A stretch of DNA of 64,000 bases, taken from positions 7,093 through 71,092 of the forward strand of contig JAILIP010000002.1 in the NCBI GenBank assembly GCA_024695235.1, given 5' to 3'. The notes beneath the pieces were generated by a model. That model did no database searches and was not told the origin of the DNA. It was given only the letters and a program-made list of their open reading frames with translations. Source of the DNA: Bacilli bacterium (GTDB taxonomy: Bacteria; Bacillota_I; Bacilli_A; RFN20; CAG-826). Shown here piece by piece: positions 1 through 36,775 of the stretch. Both the position numbers and the translations under genes were made by a program. Position 1 is the stretch's first letter. The number at the start of each line of letters is the position of its first letter.

Positions 1-456
1 TTCTTAGATGAAGAAAATATCTCTTATAGTCTTCAATCTAATTACTGCAGTTCTGAAACAAGAATCATTGCAAAGAACTACAATATGCCACTAAAAGAAG
101 ACATCAACACTCTTCTAGACAAATGTATTCTTTTAAATACATACCTATCACATTTCTTTGTAGATGGCGGATATATTGAAGCTTATGACATTAGATATCG
201 CGTTGATTACTATAAAGAAAAAACCGAGATGTATCTTCAAACACAGAAGATAGATTTAATGCAAGCCGATAGAGTTCCGTATTGGTATGGATATACAACA
301 AGTGGCTATCAAAACTCTTTATTAATAAATAATTTAGTTGTTGTTAACACTGATGCATCTGATAATGTCGAAGAGTCAAATAATGGTGACTGGGTTGTTT
401 ATAATTACATTTATACCAAACTTGCTGAAGATTTAAAAAAGGAGGTAAGCAGATAG
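1..456 (+). CDS. hypothetical protein, 5'-truncated by window edge
   Basis: Frame 1 is open from base 1 into the 85..456 ORF; no recognisable motif. Confidence 0.45.
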   Translation, partial: FLDEENISYSLQSNYCSSETRIIAKNYNMPLKEDINTLLDKCILLNTYLSHFFVDGGYIEAYDIRYRVDYYKEKTEMYLQTQKIDLMQADRVPYWYGYTTSGYQNSLLINNLVVVNTDASDNVEESNNGDWVVYNYIYTKLAEDLKKEVSR

Positions 457-6598: not shown

Positions 6599-7267
6599 CA
6601 TTCCTATAACTATTAAAGCCTGAGCGATTAGATATGTTGACATAACTAAGACCTCGGCTTTTTTAATTGGCTTATAGAATTTGTTGTATACAAGGATAGA
6701 ATCAGATATCACGAACATAAATCCACCGATGGCTGTGATAAATAAATATAGTGGTATTGCCGTGGTTGATAAAATCATCACTAAGAAGTTAAAAAATAGG
6801 ATTGAGAAATACCCCATCATTGTGTATTGTTCAAACTTATTTTGAGTGAGTCTTTTGGCAATTAAATTTGTGGATGCTAAATAGAATAAAACTGCCACAA
6901 CAAAAGCGATGAGATATATCCACCATTGAAGGTGATTTCCGACGATGAGTATCAAAGATACTAAATATAAGATATGACTTGCTGCAAAAGAGAATGATCC
7001 AATATAAAATGGCATCTTCTTTTTAGACACCAAAAGTAAGTCTCCGAGCATTGAGAAGAACACTGCAATGTAAAGGATTGGCTTTGTCGGAATAGTGACT
7101 ATTACAAACACCATCAAAAAGAGAAGACAGAAAGTCTTTTCTTTACGACGAAGTTCATCTTTGTCTAAAGCCGCTAATGCAACTTGGATAATCGAAGCAA
7201 CTAAGAATAATCCGAAAAAGACATAACCTACGATAGGAATGTTTTTAAGAACATCAACAAAGTTCAT
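6572..7267 (-). CDS. YhhN-family (lysoplasmalogenase-like) membrane protein
   Basis: Polytopic membrane protein with a GDLLL motif; overlaps the FNT gene 3' end convergently. Confidence 0.4.
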   Translation of the reverse strand: MNFVDVLKNIPIVGYVFFGLFLVASIIQVALAALDKDELRRKEKTFCLLFLMVFVIVTIPTKPILYIAVFFSMLGDLLLVSKKKMPFYIGSFSFAASHILYLVSLILIVGNHLQWWIYLIAFVVAVLFYLASTNLIAKRLTQNKFEQYTMMGYFSILFFNFLVMILSTTAIPLYLFITAIGGFMFVISDSILVYNKFYKPIKKAEVLVMSTYLIAQALIVIGMLLTIITLN

Positions 7268-25722: not shown

Positions 25723-26115
25723 GGGTCTGACACAGTTTCGACAGGGATGATTGCTTGGCAATAACTGCAGCCGAGTGGTGACGTAATCACCAAACAAAAA
25801 TAACTGACAACAGTTACATGAGAGCTCCAAGAGCTCAAGCATTCTGCGCAGCTTAATTAAGCTCCCGACATAGGGTTCCGACGCAAGGCGCCGGCCAGAT
25901 CACCTCTTGATGGATTAGCCTTTCTTCGTCAATAAAGGTGTTAAATGAAAGGATAGGTTAAGACAGTTGACTTGCTAACCTTAGCCGAATATCAAAAAGT
26001 CTCGCGAAGATAGTTACGATATACGATGCTTCGTTAAAGATAAATATCGTCTAAGCTGTAGACGTTATTGTAGGGCCTTCCTTGGACACGGGTGCAATTC
26101 CCGCCAGATCCACCA
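25723..26115 (+). ncRNA. ssrA: tmRNA (SsrA)
   Basis: 5' GGGUCUG pairs with 3' CAGAUCC-ACCA including a G3:U wobble (alanine identity); 3' GGACACGGGUGCAAUUCCCGCCAGAUCCACCA T-arm/acceptor; TATAAT -10 at 25702-25707; intrinsic terminator follows. Confidence 0.85.
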
Positions 26116-30312: not shown

Positions 30313-30351
30313 TTTTGTGATACAATAATGTTGGTAAAGGAGGACAAACAT

Positions 30352-32460
30352 ATGCAAATGAATGAAGTACCAAATTATGAAAATGATAAAGAAATCCTTC
30401 AAAAATTCGGCCGTAACATTAACGAAGAAGTTAAAAAAGGAAAGATAAATCCTGTTATTGGTCGCGACGAAGAAATTCGTAAGATTATTGAGATCTTAGC
30501 TCGTAAGACTAAAAACAATGTCATCCTTTTAGGTGAACCTGGTGTTGGTAAAACCGCTATTTTGGAAGGACTTGCAGAACGTATTGTAAAAGATGATGTC
30601 CCTTCTATATTAAAAGATAAAGTTATTTATGAACTTGATATGGGAGCACTTGTTGCAGGTGCTAAGTATCGTGGTGAATTTGAAGAAAGACTAAAAGCAG
30701 TCTTAAATAAAATCAAAGAAAGTGAAGGAAAGATCATTCTTTTCATTGATGAAATTCATCTTATCGTAGGTGCTGGCAGAACTGATGGTGCTCTTGATGC
30801 ATCAAATATGCTTAAACCAATGCTTGCAAGAGGCGAAATTGATTGTATCGGTGCAACTACTTTAAAAGAGTATCGTGAATACATTGAAAAAGATCGTGCC
30901 CTTGAAAGACGTTTCCAACCAGTCATGGTCAATGAACCAAGTGTTGAAGATACAGTTACCATTCTTCGCGGACTTAAGAATAGATTTGAATCATTCCACG
31001 GGGTGAAGATTACTGATAACGCTTTAATTGCCGCAGCTACATTATCCAATAGATATTTAACTTCTCGTTTCCTTCCTGATAAGGCAATCGATTTAGTTGA
31101 TGAAGCATGCGCATCTATTAAAGTAGATTTAGCAAGCATGCCTCAAGAACTTGATGAACTTGAAAGAAAGATTAGACAACTTCAAATCGAAAAGGTCGCT
31201 CTATCAAAAGAAAAAGATGAAGCTTCTAAGAAGAGATTAGCAGCAGTGGAAGCTGAACTTTCTGAACTTCAAAAGAAAGATGATGAACTCACTACTGAAT
31301 GGAAGAAAGAAAAAGAAGAAATTCTTGAAATTAAATCCGTTAAAGAAAAACTTGAGAAGGCAAGATTTGATTTAGATGTTGCTCTTTCTCATGGGGAATA
31401 TGAAAAAGCAGGGGAACTTCAATATAAGACAATCCCTGAACTTGAAAAGAAACTCGTTGAAAATGATTCTTTAAAAGATAACAAGATGATTTCAGAAGTT
31501 GTAGACGAATCTCAAATTGCAAAGATTATATCTAAACTCACAAACATTCCTCTTTCAAAGATTGAAAAAGGCGATAGAGAAAAAGTCTTAGATCTTAAAA
31601 AGACATTATCTCGTAGAGTTATCGGACAAGATGAGGCTCTCACTTTAGTGAGTGACGCCATCTTACGTCAAAGAGCAGGTATTAAAGATGCTAATAGACC
31701 AATTGGTAGTTTCCTCTTCTTAGGTCCTACTGGTGTAGGTAAAACAGAGGTTGCGAAAGCGTTAGCAGAATCACTCTTTGATAGTGAATCTCATATCATC
31801 AGAATTGATATGTCTGAATATATGGAGAAGTACTCAACATCTAGACTTATAGGTGCTCCTCCAGGATATGTTGGTTATGAAGAAGGCGGTCAATTAACTG
31901 AAAAGGTTAGACGAAATCCATATTCAATTGTGTTATTTGATGAAATTGAAAAAGCTCATCCTGAAGTATTTAATCTTCTTCTTCAAATGCTTGATGATGG
32001 TAGATTAACTGACTCTCAAGGTAGAGTGGTGGACTTTAAAAACACAATTATCATCATGACATCAAACTTAGGAAGTGAATATTTACTTAATAATGAAAGA
32101 GATAAAGTCGAAACACTTCTCCATCAAACATTCAAACCAGAGTTTTTGAATCGTATTGATGAAATTGTGTATTTCTCACCTTTAGGCAAAGATACTCAAA
32201 GAAAGATTGTTGAAAAGATGTTATCTAACCTCAACAATAGACTCAAAGAATCATACTATAGCTTTGAATTCTCTGAAAAACTCAAAGACTATATCCTTGA
32301 TAGTGCCTATTCACCTACATTTGGAGCGCGTCCAATTAAACGCTTTATCCAAAATAAGGTAGAAACAACAATTGCAAATAAGATAATTTCTCAAGAGGTT
32401 GATACAAAACATAAATATCTTGTCGACTATGACAAAGATATAGTTGTTAAAGAAATCTAA
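30352..32460 (+). CDS. clpB: chaperone ClpB lacking the N-terminal Clp_N domain
   Basis: Two AAA+ modules ([10 protein letters not shown]; [14 protein letters not shown]) separated by a coiled-coil M-domain; start set at the ATG after AAAGGAGGA, since the 30328 ATG sits inside the promoter. Confidence 0.85.
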
Positions 32461-32511: not shown

Positions 32512-33171
32512 TTAAGCAACTATAGGAGCAGTTACTGTTGTATTTCCCCAATCAGAGAATGTGTATGTATGAGAATAACCCTCATCATCGATATAATCCC
32601 ATTTCATAACAATATTGTTTTCAAAATAGAAATTTAGATTGGTATACGTTTTTTCACTTTGAAGAGCACTATCTGTGTGATATGCATGAGTAGATTCATT
32701 AAATGTCATTGAAGAGAAGGCTATATTATCAAAATAGTCTAGCCACCATTTGAAATCATCTAATGTCATATCATCAATTAGTCCATAGTCTTGAGGATCG
32801 GTATATGTGTCTTCGTAATAGTAATGATAGCCGCCAGTTTCTTTGATGTAGTATTGAATGCTTCCATTATAGTCAAACTTATAACTACCATGATCATAAT
32901 AGTAATGATAGTAATCTGATTGACTTTCGTCATCATCTCTAATTGTGTAGCTTATATCATCACTTAATAATCCATATCCATTTATATAGTTATTCCATAG
33001 TTCTTCACTTATTTGGTAATACTCAATTTGACCTCCGCTAGTAGTATCACTACCACTAGTGTCTGTTGTAGAAGTGCCACTTGTATCTTGATCTTTTGAT
33101 TGCTCTTTATCTTTACAACCACCTAAAGTTAAAGAAGATAATGCAATTAAGACTAATAAATGTTTTTTCAT
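32512..33171 (-). CDS. Tyr/Asp-rich lipoprotein
   Basis: Lipobox LTLGGC after an MKKHLLVLIALSS signal peptide; start set at the ATG after a GAGGT RBS. Confidence 0.55.
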   Translation of the reverse strand: MKKHLLVLIALSSLTLGGCKDKEQSKDQDTSGTSTTDTSGSDTTSGGQIEYYQISEELWNNYINGYGLLSDDISYTIRDDDESQSDYYHYYYDHGSYKFDYNGSIQYYIKETGGYHYYYEDTYTDPQDYGLIDDMTLDDFKWWLDYFDNIAFSSMTFNESTHAYHTDSALQSEKTYTNLNFYFENNIVMKWDYIDDEGYSHTYTFSDWGNTTVTAPIVA

Positions 33172-33373
33172 AGAGTTACCTCGCATGTATATATTCTACA
33201 CTCTTTAATTAAATATATATAATAATTGATTCTATATGCACGCGCGCATAGACAACGATAATTTATGATAGAAAAATATAAAAAAATAAAAAATATCAAA
33301 AAATTTTATCGAAAAAAAGTTTCGATGAATTCGAGCTTTTTAAGAAAATCGCAAAAAAATATAAAAAAAGTGC

Positions 33374-33402
33374 TTGCTTTATATATTCAATAAGAGCATA
33401 AT
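33374..33402 (+). promoter_or_regulatory. sigma-70-like promoter (TTGCTT-17-CATAAT) for the repeat ncRNA locus
   Basis: Hexamers with 17-nt spacing; AT-rich UP-like tract upstream. Confidence 0.5.
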
Positions 33403-33409
33403 ATACATC

Positions 33410-34494
33410 GTTCGGTCCGAGAGGAACGGACAAGCGCTAAGTACTGATAAGTACTTAGAGTAGCTTAGACTAGGTAAGCCAATCGACGCCTTCAAGAGAA
33501 GTTGTCACAGCGGTTCTGGAAATAAAAAAAGCTTAAAGAAAAATTCCAGATTAACGATTGCACTAGCACGAATACCTCGCAAGAGATATTCAGGGTGATT
33601 CTCCCTCCTAGAGTGGATGCTGAGTTAGAGCTTAACAGCGTAATACCACCGCCCGACAAGAACGAAGAGAATCAAGTAAAAAGCAAGGATCCTTAAGGCT
33701 AATAACCCAAAGGATGGCCGAATCACGTTAAAACAACTCAAAGCGTGAGATAAGTAAGAAGAGAGAAACTTCTACGAATAAGGCCCTAGAGAGCTCAGCC
33801 AGAGATAAGACGGTCAACCAATAAAACGACGTTGATAGTAAGGTATCTGGAGTCAAACTTCTCCAGTCAATGACCGCAATCGGCTTCTTCCCACTAGGGA
33901 AAGAAAACGGCACACCTCCCTGTTACAGTGGTCGCTGAGTTAGAGCTTAACAGCGTAAAACCACCGCCGGACACGATCAAAGAGGAAAGCAAAAAGAAGC
34001 TAATAGTTAACGCTATTAGAAAAAGCCTAAGCTACATTACTCAACCTAACGTGTAGCGATAAGAGAAGAACTGCAAATGACCTGGTATCTTCTCTAAAGA
34101 AACGGCCTAAAGAGTTCAAGACTAGATAAGACGATGCAGTCCTTAAATTGAACGAGGACGTCCAGGAGTCAAACACTACTGGTTAGGATATCGCACTAGC
34201 AAAGGGTTATTACGAAAGTAGTAATCATCGGTACGTCCCTCATGACGCAAGTCATCGGTCTCCACGTATGAGTTTGATGGAGTAAACCCGACACCGGACA
34301 CGACGAAGAGGGAAACAGCCCTGAAGCTAATAACTAAGGGAAGCCGGCCACTAGAGTGCTACGCAATTACATACACTCTAGAAGCAAGAAGCATCACCGG
34401 CCAAAAGGAACTCAACTTATGTATTGCGTGGCAGGGACTTGTCCCTGCTGCGGAATAACGGTTAAACGTGACGTGCGAACGTCACATTTTTTTA
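33410..34494 (+). ncRNA. candidate large structured ncRNA: at least 3.5 diverged tandem copies of a ~330-nt unit
   Basis: No ORF over 60 codons on either strand across about 1.1 kb; GC-enriched versus flanks; conserved islands recur (gagttagagcttaacagcgtaaTaccaccgcc, aagctaataa, agataagacg, ggagtcaaac, cgcactagca); perfect 9-bp hairpin near the 5' end; ends in an intrinsic terminator. Confidence 0.5.
34468..34494 (+). terminator. rho-independent terminator ending the repeat ncRNA locus
   Basis: gtgacg-tgcgaa-cgtcac hairpin followed by TTTTTTT. Confidence 0.75.
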
Positions 34495-34591
34495 TCTCTA
34501 AGGGTCCTTATGGGCTCTTTTTTTATATTTAGAATCAATAAACTTGTTATTTAACAATATTTTTATAAAATATTCATAAGGAGAATATCTT

Positions 34592-35839
34592 ATGCCAGAA
34601 TATGTTATCGTCTTACTTTTTGTTTTATTAGGAGTAGTCCTTATTGGATTAGTTGTTTTAGGAGTACTTATTCTTAAGTTATCTAAGAAACAAACAGTTA
34701 GTGGTGCTCCTATGGATCAACAAGCCATCGGTGAAGTAAAAGCAAAGATAGATTCCATTGATAAACAAGTTGAAAAGTCTCTTGAAATCGTCATGGCGAA
34801 AGAGATGATCAAACTTTCTAAAGAATATGGCGATAATACAGAAAAGTCTGCTCAAAGTCTTTCTAAATTCCAATCAAACATCAACGAATTCCTTCAAAAA
34901 AGAATCGATGCTTTGAATAAACAACTTGATGATAAGATTGCATTACTTGATAAAAAGGTAGATGACAAATTAAATCAAGGATTCAAAGGAACATCTGAAT
35001 CAATGGCCCAAGTTCGTGAAAGACTTAAAGCAATTGATGAGGCTCAAAAGCAAATGGAAGGCCTCGGAAAAGAAGTTGTTTCTCTTAAAAATGTTTTAGA
35101 AGGCAATCAAACACGTGGTCAATATGGTGAATATCAACTTTCGATGGTTCTCCATAATGTTTTTGGAGATACAGTTGGTTGCTATGAAGAGCAATACACG
35201 ATGAAAAAGGTTAAAGATGGTGATGATGTCCGCGCTGATGCGGTGGTCTTCATGCCAGAACCCAATAAAATGATTGCAATTGACTCTAAGTTCCCGTTCC
35301 AAGATTACAAACGTATCTTTGAAGCAGAAAGTGAAGAAGAAAAAGAATCACTTAAAAGAGATTTTGCAGCCGCTGTTAAAAAACACATCACAGTTATAAA
35401 AGATAAATATATTGTTGAAGGCAAAACTGCTCCTGAAGCACTTATGTTTATTCCAAATGATGGAGTATTTGCTTTTGTTCATCATGAACTTCAAGATGTG
35501 GTGGAATACGCTAGAGAAAAATGTGTCATCTTAACATCTCCATCAACCCTTCCTCCAATTCTTGTCACGATTAATATGGTGAGAATTGATGCTGAGAGAG
35601 CAAAGAATGCTAAAGAGATTTCCAAGCACTTAGCAAAGCTTGGCAAAGACTTCGAAATGTTCTCTAGAGAATGGGAAAGTCTATCAAGGCAAATTGATCA
35701 AGCTGCTAAATCAAGAGAAAAACTTGATTCAAGAGTGAACAAGATTACAACCAAATTTGACTCCATAAATGAGGTCGAATTACTCGAAGAAAAAGAAGAT
35801 AATTCAGTTCAAGAAATATCAATATTATCTGATGAATAA
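34592..35839 (+). CDS. rmuC: DNA recombination protein RmuC
   Basis: N-terminal TM, long coiled-coil, then a C-terminal RmuC nuclease-like region (ADAVVFMPEPNKMIAIDSKFPFQDY...FIPNDGVF). Confidence 0.75.
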   Translation: MPEYVIVLLFVLLGVVLIGLVVLGVLILKLSKKQTVSGAPMDQQAIGEVKAKIDSIDKQVEKSLEIVMAKEMIKLSKEYGDNTEKSAQSLSKFQSNINEFLQKRIDALNKQLDDKIALLDKKVDDKLNQGFKGTSESMAQVRERLKAIDEAQKQMEGLGKEVVSLKNVLEGNQTRGQYGEYQLSMVLHNVFGDTVGCYEEQYTMKKVKDGDDVRADAVVFMPEPNKMIAIDSKFPFQDYKRIFEAESEEEKESLKRDFAAAVKKHITVIKDKYIVEGKTAPEALMFIPNDGVFAFVHHELQDVVEYAREKCVILTSPSTLPPILVTINMVRIDAERAKNAKEISKHLAKLGKDFEMFSREWESLSRQIDQAAKSREKLDSRVNKITTKFDSINEVELLEEKEDNSVQEISILSDE

Positions 35840-35845
35840 AAAAGA

Positions 35846-35872
35846 AGTAGATACTATGTATCTACTTTTTAT
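35846..35872. terminator. bidirectional terminator
   Basis: agtagata-ctatg-tatctact hairpin flanked by A-run and T-run. Confidence 0.7.
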
Positions 35873-36695
35873 TAATTTCTAATGCAAGCTCACCGAGGAG
35901 TGGCTCGAATTTAACACCATACCAATGGTCTGGATCACCAATGGTATTTTTGATGCATTTGACAACGAAGTCTGCGGCAATCTTGCTTGATTTGAATGCA
36001 TCATTATTTTTTAGATATGCACCTAAGAAACTTGATGCATAGACATCACCTGTACCGTGATAGCTTTGTTGTAGTTTTTGATGTTCATAGTATTTAACAT
36101 CTTTTTCATAGACGACAACACCAGTCATGCCTTCCTTATATGAGACGCCTGTTAGGATGATTGTCTTTGCGCCTAACTTTCTTAAACCATCAAGAAGTGA
36201 TTTGATGTATTTTTCATCATATTCAGTTTTAAATTCAATTCCAGTTAAGAAGCTTGCTTCTGTGATATTTGGAAGAAGGATGTCTGCTTTAGCGCATAAC
36301 TTCTTCATTGCTTCAACATATTCGTTATTGAAGATTGGATATAGTTTTCCGTTATCTCCCATAACTGGATCAAGCACGAACTTGCCATCTTCTTTAAGTT
36401 CGTCTTTTATCATTCTTTCAACTAATGGGAAAATGCTAATGCTTCCTAAATATCCTGCATAGACAGCATCAAATTTAATCCCTTCTTTTTTGTGATGGTC
36501 TAGGATATGAGGAATATCATTACTTAAATCATTAAATGTAAAATCTTTGAATCCATATGTGTGGGTTGAAAGCACCGCACTAGGGATAATTGCAGTTTCA
36601 ACACCAGCTGCACTTAAGACAGGTAATGCTACAGTAATAGAACATTGTCCGTAGCATGAAATATCCTGAATTGTAATTACTTTTTTGTTGCTCAT
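35862..36695 (-). CDS. pdxK: pyridoxal/pyridoxamine kinase (ribokinase superfamily)
   Basis: GYLGS...DPVMGDNGKLY...TGVSY...HGTGDVYAS; start moved to the second ATG because TATATAAT (-10) lies within the first 10 codons of the ORF-track start. Confidence 0.7.
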   Translation of the reverse strand: MSNKKVITIQDISCYGQCSITVALPVLSAAGVETAIIPSAVLSTHTYGFKDFTFNDLSNDIPHILDHHKKEGIKFDAVYAGYLGSISIFPLVERMIKDELKEDGKFVLDPVMGDNGKLYPIFNNEYVEAMKKLCAKADILLPNITEASFLTGIEFKTEYDEKYIKSLLDGLRKLGAKTIILTGVSYKEGMTGVVVYEKDVKYYEHQKLQQSYHGTGDVYASSFLGAYLKNNDAFKSSKIAADFVVKCIKNTIGDPDHWYGVKFEPLLGELALEINKK

Positions 36696-36775
36696 AATAC
36701 ACACATTATATATATTTTTTTGCAAATGTTAAACATTTTAACAAAGTTAATATATTTTGCATTATAATCATAGTA

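Follow-up and report, generated by a model that had tools for sequence, protein, structure and literature searches.

What does a bacterium encode in a gap of 1.4 kb whose longest open reading frame (ORF) is 61 aa? The question arises in contig JAILIP010000002.1 of a Bacilli bacterium (assembly GCA_024695235.1), of which we analysed the 64,000 nt between positions 7,093 and 71,092 of the forward strand; this whole stretch is called the window, and all coordinates count from its first nucleotide. The gap extends from a lipoprotein-like ORF to rmuC. A preliminary description made from the letters of the DNA had placed in it a transcribed, repeated large RNA under structural selection, and our analysis supports that proposal. 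Window 33410-34493 (+) is a free-standing gene for a highly structured non-coding RNA of ~1,084 nt, which is probably transcribed and which consists, after a short leader, of three homologous domains held by compensatory base changes. The best explanation overall, to which we assign a probability of roughly 0.6, is that of a free-standing gene for a three-domain structured RNA which would act in trans as a multivalent scaffold.

Limits of the gene and its relatives

The gap is indeed poor in ORFs (the 61-aa frame lies at 33728-33913 on the minus strand) and its core is enriched in G and C, as first described: the GC fraction is 0.42-0.485 over 33400-34500 against 0.22-0.33 in the flanks. The lipoprotein gene, on the other hand, had been called convergent, and is actually divergent from the RNA gene. 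The elements that delimit the RNA are the following.

33410-34493 (+): whole RNA, ~1,084 nt, from the predicted start 7-8 nt past the -10 to the T-run of the terminator
33374-33402 (+): sigma-70-type promoter, -35 TTGCTT (33374-33379), 17-nt spacer, -10 CATAAT (33397-33402), seen in the sequence and in homologues
33270-33366 (+): A-tract-rich, UP-element-like block with phased A-tracts, seen in the sequence upstream of the -35
34468-34493 (+): intrinsic terminator from a terminator scan, stem 34468-34473 with 34480-34485, T7 at 34487-34493
34500-34519 (+): second, weaker terminator-like hairpin and T-run from the terminator scan, directly after the RNA's own terminator; the element is annotated as far as 34527
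34544-34571 (+): promoter-like TTGTTA-16-TAAAAT from the promoter scan, ahead of rmuC

More than 100 related loci were gathered from rumen metagenome-assembled genomes (MAGs) and metagenomes. An exact motif 22-mer occurs at 16 loci in species-representative genomes, all of them MAGs, which are labelled uncultured Erysipelotrichaceae, Bacilli or Bacillales and most of which name a rumen source; a degenerate pattern gave 88 metagenome loci. Among the viral contigs of IMG/VR the degenerate pattern had no match, while the four loci hit by a second pattern all fail to match the RNA profile at E ≤ 10 and are chance matches; a viral origin was rejected. The profile was built from nine full-length copies, 58-70% identical and collinear from promoter to terminator, and its position 1 lies 3 nt past the -10. 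It returned 136 hits, 60 of them full length, and 46 of these 60 are non-redundant at 95%, with a median pairwise identity of 67%. All full-length relatives are collinear over the whole 1.05-1.1 kb from promoter to terminator. Members of the family are overall ~60-70% identical and form ~24 clusters at 78%, the nearest relative of the window copy being at most 72% identical. So far, the family has been found only in uncultured rumen Bacilli, in MAGs that carry the three labels just given.

Genomes hold several diverged copies of the RNA gene. Six contigs carry two each, ~90-250 nt apart in L034, L074, L075 and L096 and ~1.3-2 kb apart in L008 and L052; the two copies of L052 are 79% identical. 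Separately, the 2.4-kb contig L041 has an inverted partial copy (93-712, minus) abutting a longer, five-domain copy (682-2352, plus), and is probably an assembly chimera.

Both ends of the gene recur among the relatives. Of the 71 distinct upstream regions collected from homologues, 65 carry a TTGnnn-16..18-nAnnnT element at the equivalent position, where it ends 1-6 nt ahead of profile position 1, which upholds the TTGCTT-17-CATAAT promoter proposed from the window. The -35 of the homologues is mostly TTGCAA, TTGCAT or TTGACG, the spacer measures 17 nt in 53 regions, and the -10 reads CATACT in 37 and CATAAT in 15. A generic promoter scan omits the site at 33374-33402 because its -35 matches at only 3/6 positions. 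Most of the 71 regions also contain an 'aaaaaa..ttttaaaaaaagt' block upstream of the -35; judged by its sequence, this block resembles an UP element and would fit a strong promoter. At the other end, the strong T7-tailed terminator of the preliminary description was recovered by the scan (stem 34468-34485), and a hairpin followed by a T-run closes every full-length genomic homologue at the equivalent position. Between the last hairpin and the terminator almost all members keep a nearly invariant ACGGUU (34458-34463), for which no pairing partner was found in the family alignment; a leader-to-tail helix AACCG/CGGUU was rejected, as it shows no covariation. The second terminator-like hairpin is possibly a back-up terminator of the RNA gene and, together with the promoter-like site ahead of rmuC, suggests that the RNA gene and rmuC are insulated from each other. 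The promoter, the terminator and frequent G-U pairs set the RNA strand as plus.

The ends of public contigs bear on transcription. Fourteen contigs of 1000-1052 nt start 10-28 nt into the profile and end 18-65 nt before its end, so that their 3′ ends fall at or just before the terminator, and three contigs of 1679-1693 nt show the same pattern for the longer, five-domain variant. Several contigs with extra 5′ sequence likewise stop at the terminator.

Contigs with RNA-sized ends, 1000-1052 nt: L024, L025, L032, L045, L047, L056, L066, L072, L076, L079, L081, L085, L100, L101
Contigs with RNA-sized ends, 1679-1693 nt: L044, L097, L099

Since the ends of at least 17 short contigs coincide with those of the RNA, they look like assembled transcripts, and the RNA would mark an abundant-looking transcript in an uncultured rumen lineage. 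A protein-coding gene was considered and rejected: the longest stop-to-stop ORF in the family has a median of 74 aa, shorter than the 89 aa of shuffled sequences, and pairwise indels have a length divisible by 3 in only 12% of cases.

Fold of the leader and the three domains

The preliminary description had recognised a tandem array of ~330-nt units with conserved islands. All the islands that it listed are present; its register of three and a half units does not hold, and three complete units after a 56-nt leader fit better. The domains (R1, R2 and R3) measure 310-346 nt and share one architecture with ~10 common helices each.

33410-33465 (+): 5′ leader, 56 nt, pairs verified in the window
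33410-33431 (+): leader hairpin P0 with GAGA loop, length-variable and poorly aligned, covariation by eye only
33437-33458 (+): leader hairpin P1 with GAUA loop, 98% paired, 7/8 pairs covary
33433-35 with 33463-65 (+): short outer helix enclosing the leader, pairs verified in the window
33466-33804 (+): domain R1, with P2-P10, X, PK, PKL and KL; helix coordinates and covariation; orthologues 64% identical
33805-34114 (+): domain R2; the 5′ strand of its P2 lies just upstream (33797-33800); orthologues 68% identical
34115-34460 (+): domain R3, with an extra 3′ hairpin P11 (34422-34457); orthologues 71% identical

The 5′ part of each domain consists of helix P2 (CUAG/CUAG; AGCC/GGCU in R2) and a three-way junction P3-P4-P5, followed by the variable hairpin P6. 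A helix X of 4-5 bp closes the core, which contains a mini-hairpin and a hairpin catalogued in Rfam as cow-rumen-1 and which a CCUC/GAGG pseudoknot (PK) locks in place. The 3′ sub-domain is made of hairpin P7, whose loop is GCUAAUAAC in R1 and R3, the closing helix P8, and P9 with a large conserved loop, to which R1 and R2 add a variable P10. Two stretches of the junction core, GACAYGAYCGAA and GUAA, are unpaired and invariant in all units.

33593-33670 (+): R1 junction core, with X, mini-hairpin hx, cow-rumen-1 hairpin and PK
33593-96 with 33651-54 (+): R1 helix X, GGGU/GCCC, covariation
33605-13 (+): R1 mini-hairpin hx, in the junction core
33614-33648 (+): R1 cow-rumen-1 hairpin, in the junction core
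33600-03 with 33667-70 (+): R1 PK, UCUC/GAGA, 96.7% paired
33908-33985 (+): R2 junction core, X 33908-11/33966-69 (CGGC/GCCG), PK 33915-18/33982-85 (CCUC/GAGG)
34228-34313 (+): R3 junction core, X 34228-32/34293-97 (UCGGU/ACCGG), PK 34236-41/34308-13 (UCCCUC/GAGGGA)

Helix X differs coherently between units (GGGU/GCCC, CGGC/GCCG and UCGGU/ACCGG). In R1, a 4-bp complement at fixed offset is found in 39/45 sequences, GCCC going with GGGY, GCCU with AGGY and ACCC with GGGU; the variable pair of X in R2 is CG in 35, AU in 4, GU in 3, UA in 2 and GC in 1, and X of R3 is invariant and 100% paired. The R1 pseudoknot of the window, UCUC/GAGA, is a compensated version of the consensus CCUC/GAGG. PK is 94% paired in R2 and covaries in R3 (AU 21/UA 21 and UA 32/CG 14).

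Two further classes of long-range helix emerged from an unbiased all-against-all covariation scan, a loop-strand pseudoknot (PKL), which joins the apical loop of the cow-rumen-1 hairpin to the 3′ region of the same domain, and a kissing loop (KL) between P4 and P9. Together they close each domain on itself.

33628-33633 with 33791-33796 (+): PKL1, GAGCUU of the R1 hairpin apical loop with GAGCUC of the R1 3′ end, 98.9% paired
33943-33948 with 34112-34117 (+): PKL2, R2 hairpin loop with R2 3′ end, 98.5% paired, GC 38/AU 7 and CG 30/UA 15
34270-34274 with 34409-34413 (+): PKL3, R3 hairpin loop with a strand near the R3 3′ end, three covarying pairs, e.g. UA 35/CG 10
33500-04 with 33734-38 (+): KL1 in R1, P4 loop AGUUG with P9 loop CAACU, 97% paired, GC 42/AU 4
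33831-35 with 34041-45 (+): KL2 in R2, P4 loop GUUGA with P9 loop UCAAC, 100% paired
34146-50 with 34364-68 (+): KL3 in R3, P4 loop AAUUG with P9 loop CAAUU, 99% paired, UA 30/CG 13

Two adjacent pairs of PKL1 covary (AU 23/GC 22 and CG 25/UA 19). The KL core is GUUG/CAAC in R1 and R2 and AUUG/CAAU in R3; KL2 is invariant and by itself uninformative, and its position is equivalent to those of KL1 and KL3. Between the 3′ strand of PKL1 (alignment columns 516-521) and P2 of R2 (columns 522-525) there is no linker at all; at each of the other two junctions the linker is a conserved AAGN of 4 nt. Spacings this short (0 or 4 nt) argue for a fixed geometry between domains rather than beads on a string.

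How strongly this fold is kept was measured on alignment A2, the 46 non-redundant full-length sequences. RNAalifold on A2 gives 162 pairs, 111 with compensatory changes. A curated helix list was made on the window sequence, in which all helices form except for one A-G mismatch in P4 of R1; its well-aligned helices, 39 with 188 pairs, were counted on A2 and compared with controls in which the partners were slid by 1-3 columns, and with 500 shuffles. In the curated structure, 93.2% of the cells are paired (30-43% when slid), compensatory double changes occur in 121 of the 188 pairs (40-50) and in 1067 cells (94-145), and the covariation score is 0.369 (0.06-0.08). None of the 500 shuffles attained the observed covariation values. 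The tertiary helices PKL and KL, 33 pairs in all, reach 95.9% pairing and 104 double-change cells; sliding lowers these values to 18-52% and 1-16. G-U pairs are found in 46/46 sequences at 34228/34297 and in 45/46 at alignment columns 1083/1095, and the z-score of the single-sequence minimum free energy is -3.8 for the plus strand and -2.9 for the minus strand. Three RNAalifold helices (223-225/1242-1244, 748-752/1072-1076 and 1111-1115/1166-1170) were dropped, as they conflict with the better-supported X, P8 and C1, the outer helix of the cow-rumen-1 hairpin; a closing helix of R3 (34116-20/34411-15) shows no covariation and is superseded by PKL3.

The cow-rumen-1 motif and the history of the repeat

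We compared the locus with the families of Rfam 15, scanning the 64-kb window at gathering scores and 33150-34650 permissively (E ≤ 10). The preliminary description had matched the locus to no known RNA family. This stands for the known large RNAs; it does not stand for the orphan family cow-rumen-1 (RF02946), a 61-nt model of type 'Gene; sRNA' (small RNA) with a gathering score of 53.4 bits and function unknown, which matches once in each domain.

33610-33670 (+): cow-rumen-1 match in R1, 72.3 bits, E = 8e-17
33925-33985 (+): cow-rumen-1 match in R2, 84.9 bits, E = 1.7e-20
34252-34311 (+): cow-rumen-1 match in R3, 67.5 bits, E = 2e-15

All three matches exceed the gathering score and are spaced by 315 and 327 nt, in keeping with the tandem array. 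They cover 3 × 61 nt, ~183 of ~1,084 nt or ~17% of the locus, so that Rfam does not explain the locus as a whole. No model of ROOL, GOLLD, OLE, HEARO, raiA, RNase P, 6S RNA or group I/II introns matches the locus at E ≤ 10, nor do the riboswitch families, the self-cleaving ribozymes (hammerhead, twister, pistol, hatchet, HDV-like and others) or CsrB/CsrC/RsmX/Y/Z; besides cow-rumen-1, the permissive scan returned only chance-level noise. At gathering scores, ROOL, GOLLD, OLE, HEARO, raiA and other large RNAs have no match anywhere in the window. Its only other gathering-score match is a transfer-messenger RNA (tmRNA, RF00023, 104 bits, full-length match) at 25723-26115 (+).

In the 16 loci of species-representative genomes cow-rumen-1 likewise occurs in arrays of three at 290-345-nt spacing, and in one of them in an array of five; several arrays can share one contig. 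The motif is always found within the conserved 1.05-1.7-kb RNA. Its hairpin is kept by pairing: the outer helix C1 (4 bp) is 100% paired in all three units and the middle helix C2 (5 bp), in which compensatory changes occur, is paired at 94-96% in R1 and R2 and at ~85-88% in R3. However, the 5′ edge of the Rfam model splits the mini-hairpin, and its 3′ edge falls on the 3′ strand of PK. Its 'unpaired' 3′ tail pairs with sequences upstream and outside the model, in helix X and the CCUC/GAGG pseudoknot, and its apical loop, including Rfam's innermost 3 bp, pairs ~165 nt downstream in PKL. RF02946 therefore represents a piece of a large RNA rather than an sRNA that stands by itself. The motif goes back to Weinberg et al. 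(2017, NAR 45:10811; PMC5737381), whose main text does not discuss it, and its name has no occurrence in the full-text literature searched, where broader queries led to that paper, to cryo-electron microscopy work on ROOL, GOLLD and OLE, and otherwise only to unrelated papers. The 61-nt motif was known already; for the RNA of 1.05-1.7 kb, its domain architecture, the pseudoknots and the modularity of three or five domains, the literature searched has no description.

The units have diverged more than was supposed. Direct repeats at 315-327-nt spacing comprise 69 nt (86% identical), 33 nt (73%) and 15 nt (87%); Tandem Repeats Finder reports no long-period array at the locus because the units are too diverged. 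In place of the 60-70% identity given for the regions between the islands, the units of the window are overall 43-56% identical (R1-R2 56%, R1-R3 51%, R2-R3 43%). Across the family, the same comparisons give 56%, 51-52% and 46%, and it makes no difference whether the units compared belong to one RNA or to two. Between orthologous units, on the other hand, identity is 64-71%, and each of the positions R1, R2 and R3 has its conserved signature. Since orthologous units are more alike than the units within one RNA, the triplication is ancient and predates the radiation of the family. Concerted evolution is absent, and selection maintains every copy of the unit. A tandem satellite or CRISPR-like array was rejected, as units 43-56% identical are no closer within than between RNAs.

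A five-domain form of ~1.68 kb, leader+R1+R2+R1′+R2′+R3, is found in 13 loci (L008:1049-2746(-), L044, L097, L099, L062:3987-5694(-) and eight others). It arose when a two-domain block was duplicated exactly at a domain border.

Function, rival explanations and comparison with known RNAs

The genes around the RNA in the window are the following.

30328-32460 (+): ClpB-like AAA+ ATPase
32512-33186 (-): lipoprotein-like ORF, 224 aa, no Pfam hit
34592-35839 (+): RmuC, starting ~100 nt past the RNA terminator
35862-36725 (-): kinase of the phosphomethylpyrimidine-kinase / PfkB families

No neighbouring or downstream gene is constant across the related loci, and no phage or mobile-element genes were found near the RNA in them. 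The downstream genes encode RmuC, acyltransferases, ZIP transporters, hydrolases or surface proteins, or are a second copy of the RNA, and some lie on the opposite strand; the lack of a constant one argues against a cis-regulatory role. Some neighbours recur elsewhere: 16 loci have a Cthe_2159/Big_2 surface protein next to the RNA, 11 an acyltransferase, 10 a ZIP transporter and 6 a hydrolase. The neighbours are often lipoproteins or surface proteins, and several ORFs in the flanks of L052, L064, L080 and L090 have lipobox-like N-termini, which may simply mirror the gene content of the lineage.

Our tentative proposal for the RNA, held at somewhat less than even odds, is a rigid, multivalent scaffold that works in trans. 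The three (or five) domains would display as many copies of one conserved surface, formed by the invariant GACAYGAYCGAA strand and the core loops, and these surfaces would engage several copies of one partner, be it a protein, a ligand or the RNA itself. Several points weigh against this picture or parts of it. No gene is consistently adjacent among the related loci, and the scaffold role is argued from the architecture. All carriers are uncultured MAGs or metagenome contigs, the RNA being known here from sequence alone. The support for transcription consists of contig boundaries, and the samples may or may not be metatranscriptomes. As for the fold, P0, P6, P7 of R1 and R2, P10 of R1 and P11a are length-variable and poorly aligned, with support mostly by eye. 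In addition, PKL uses the same nucleotides as Rfam's innermost 3 bp of the hairpin (33623-33633 and 33938-33948), and there is some covariation in either pairing; the RNA may adopt alternative conformers at this helix (C3), or the overlap may be an artefact of the short Rfam model. Finally, tandem occurrence of cow-rumen-1 may already be noted in the supplement of the 2017 paper.

Among other explanations, an RNA-only particle comes next to the scaffold, with a low probability. By analogy with other large RNAs, the three domains could pack with pseudo-three-fold symmetry into a 'trimer in one chain' and perhaps into larger assemblies like those of GOLLD, ROOL and OLE. Each domain is closed by its own tertiary helices, the linkers between domains are 0-4 nt long, and the R1 and R2 loops that form PKL share one sequence in the window (GAGCUU), with partner strands cross-compatible in at least 88% of the sequences, which makes domain swapping within or between molecules sterically conceivable. 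Moreover, GOLLD, ROOL and OLE form RNA-only homo-oligomers, and the assembly of such large ornate RNAs of similar habitat is mediated by kissing loops (PMC12286853). However, the all-against-all scan shows no covariation between domains beyond the similarity of the units, the cognate PKL pairings have more double-change cells (43 and 23) than the cross pairings (21 and 14), and five-domain variants fit a simple three-fold object poorly. A related idea, which we find similarly doubtful, regards the RNA as a natural covalent concatemer of a self-closing ~320-nt domain, pseudo-symmetric and three- or five-in-one, which might assemble further through its cross-compatible loop-strand pseudoknots. 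The self-containment of the domains, their varying number (3 or 5) and the Rfam type 'Gene; sRNA' would also suit a precursor, the 1.1-kb transcript being cut into three (five) ~320-nt RNAs or into ~60-nt cow-rumen-1 sRNAs. This we regard as rather improbable: the 61-nt motif is not autonomous, with a tail that pairs up to 25 nt upstream and a loop that pairs ~165 nt downstream, the transcript-like contigs run unbroken through all three (1.0 kb) or five (1.68 kb) domains, PKL1 is contiguous with P2 of R2 and leaves no linker for a processing site, and R1, R2 and R3 each keep a conserved signature of their own.

The remaining alternatives fare worse. Tandem homologous aptamers are an established design, as in the glycine riboswitch, and the compact pseudoknotted core with its invariant unpaired GACAYGAYCGAA and GUAA in all units could by analogy be that of a ribozyme or ligand-sensing domain, repeated for cooperativity. 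Such a role is very unlikely, given that no ribozyme or riboswitch family matches at E ≤ 10, that no expression platform was recognised and no downstream gene is consistent, that a plain strong hairpin and U-run terminator ends all members, and that public contigs span all the domains intact. In the all-against-all scan no covarying alternative to the terminator stem appeared, in a region that is poorly aligned and without a dedicated antiterminator search. A giant cis-acting leader of the downstream gene is strongly disfavoured: rmuC does follow on the same strand ~100 nt past the terminator, and a same-strand acyltransferase gene lies ~50 nt downstream in 11 other loci, but downstream genes vary widely and are partly on the opposite strand, two successive terminators and a separate promoter-like site precede rmuC, and contigs stop at the terminator. 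There is hardly any chance that the locus is non-functional DNA, whether a decaying tandem duplication, a satellite, a pseudogene or the remnant of a mobile element. A repeat identity of 43-56% could resemble decay, yet the massive compensatory covariation refutes this idea in our view; promoter and terminator are conserved in position, each unit has positional orthologues across ~24 sequence clusters, and there are neither viral matches nor mobile-element genes nearby. The decaying duplicated pseudogene that the preliminary description had named as its own alternative is thus excluded by covariation and by the positional orthology of each unit.

To our knowledge, only a handful of bacterial non-coding RNAs exceed 500 nt, and each one studied gave unexpected biology, such as ribozymes, membrane ribonucleoproteins and RNA nanocages; we know of no precedent among bacterial RNAs for three or five homologous knotted domains in one chain. 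The present RNA belongs with the large ornate bacterial non-coding RNAs of unknown function. With its 1.05-1.7 kb it would be one of the longest, and covariation supports its structure unusually well. Its modular design offers a natural experiment in which the evolution of large RNA folds by duplication can be followed; being large, probably rigid and pseudo-symmetric, it also lends itself to cryo-electron microscopy and to benchmarks of RNA structure prediction. Were the concatemer idea true, a single chain would build the multi-protomer architecture that GOLLD, ROOL and OLE make from separate chains, and this would be the first bacterial large RNA shown to evolve by internal domain duplication, as repeat proteins do.

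With RF02946 the RNA shares the hairpin, whose helices C1 and C2 are confirmed by covariation, and the rumen habitat, with one match per domain. The model, however, has 61 nt, whereas the real unit has ~320 nt and the RNA ~1,080 nt, so that an orphan 'sRNA' entry is reinterpreted as a fragment of a much larger RNA. Repetition of a module within one transcript is also found in CsrB/RsmZ, with short GGA hairpins of ~20 nt and little tertiary structure, and in mammalian NORAD, whose ~12 repeats of ~300 nt are similar in length to ours and form loosely structured protein-binding platforms. By analogy, the present RNA might work as a multi-repeat decoy or scaffold, but, unlike those RNAs, each of its repeats is a compact, pseudoknotted, multi-helix fold of ~320 nt. 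The tandem glycine riboswitch likewise keeps homologous structured domains in one transcript by selection. Its aptamer domains, ~100 nt in length, belong to 5′ leaders that possess an expression platform and a constant regulon. The domains of the present RNA measure ~320 nt; no platform was recognised for it, no downstream gene is constant and no riboswitch family matches.

The closest resemblance is to ROOL (RF03087), GOLLD (RF01998) and OLE (RF01071), which likewise stand alone, exceed 500 nt, combine many helices with pseudoknots and kissing loops, are of unknown biochemical function, and also occur in Firmicutes/Bacilli-type organisms. ROOL, too, was first seen in cow rumen (PMC5737381). 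The present RNA differs from all three in that it matches none of them in sequence or structure, is longer (1.05-1.7 kb), has no association with tRNAs or prophages and occurs as several diverged paralogues per genome. Above all, where ROOL, GOLLD and OLE each adopt one non-repetitive fold, it is built of three or five covalently linked homologous domains.

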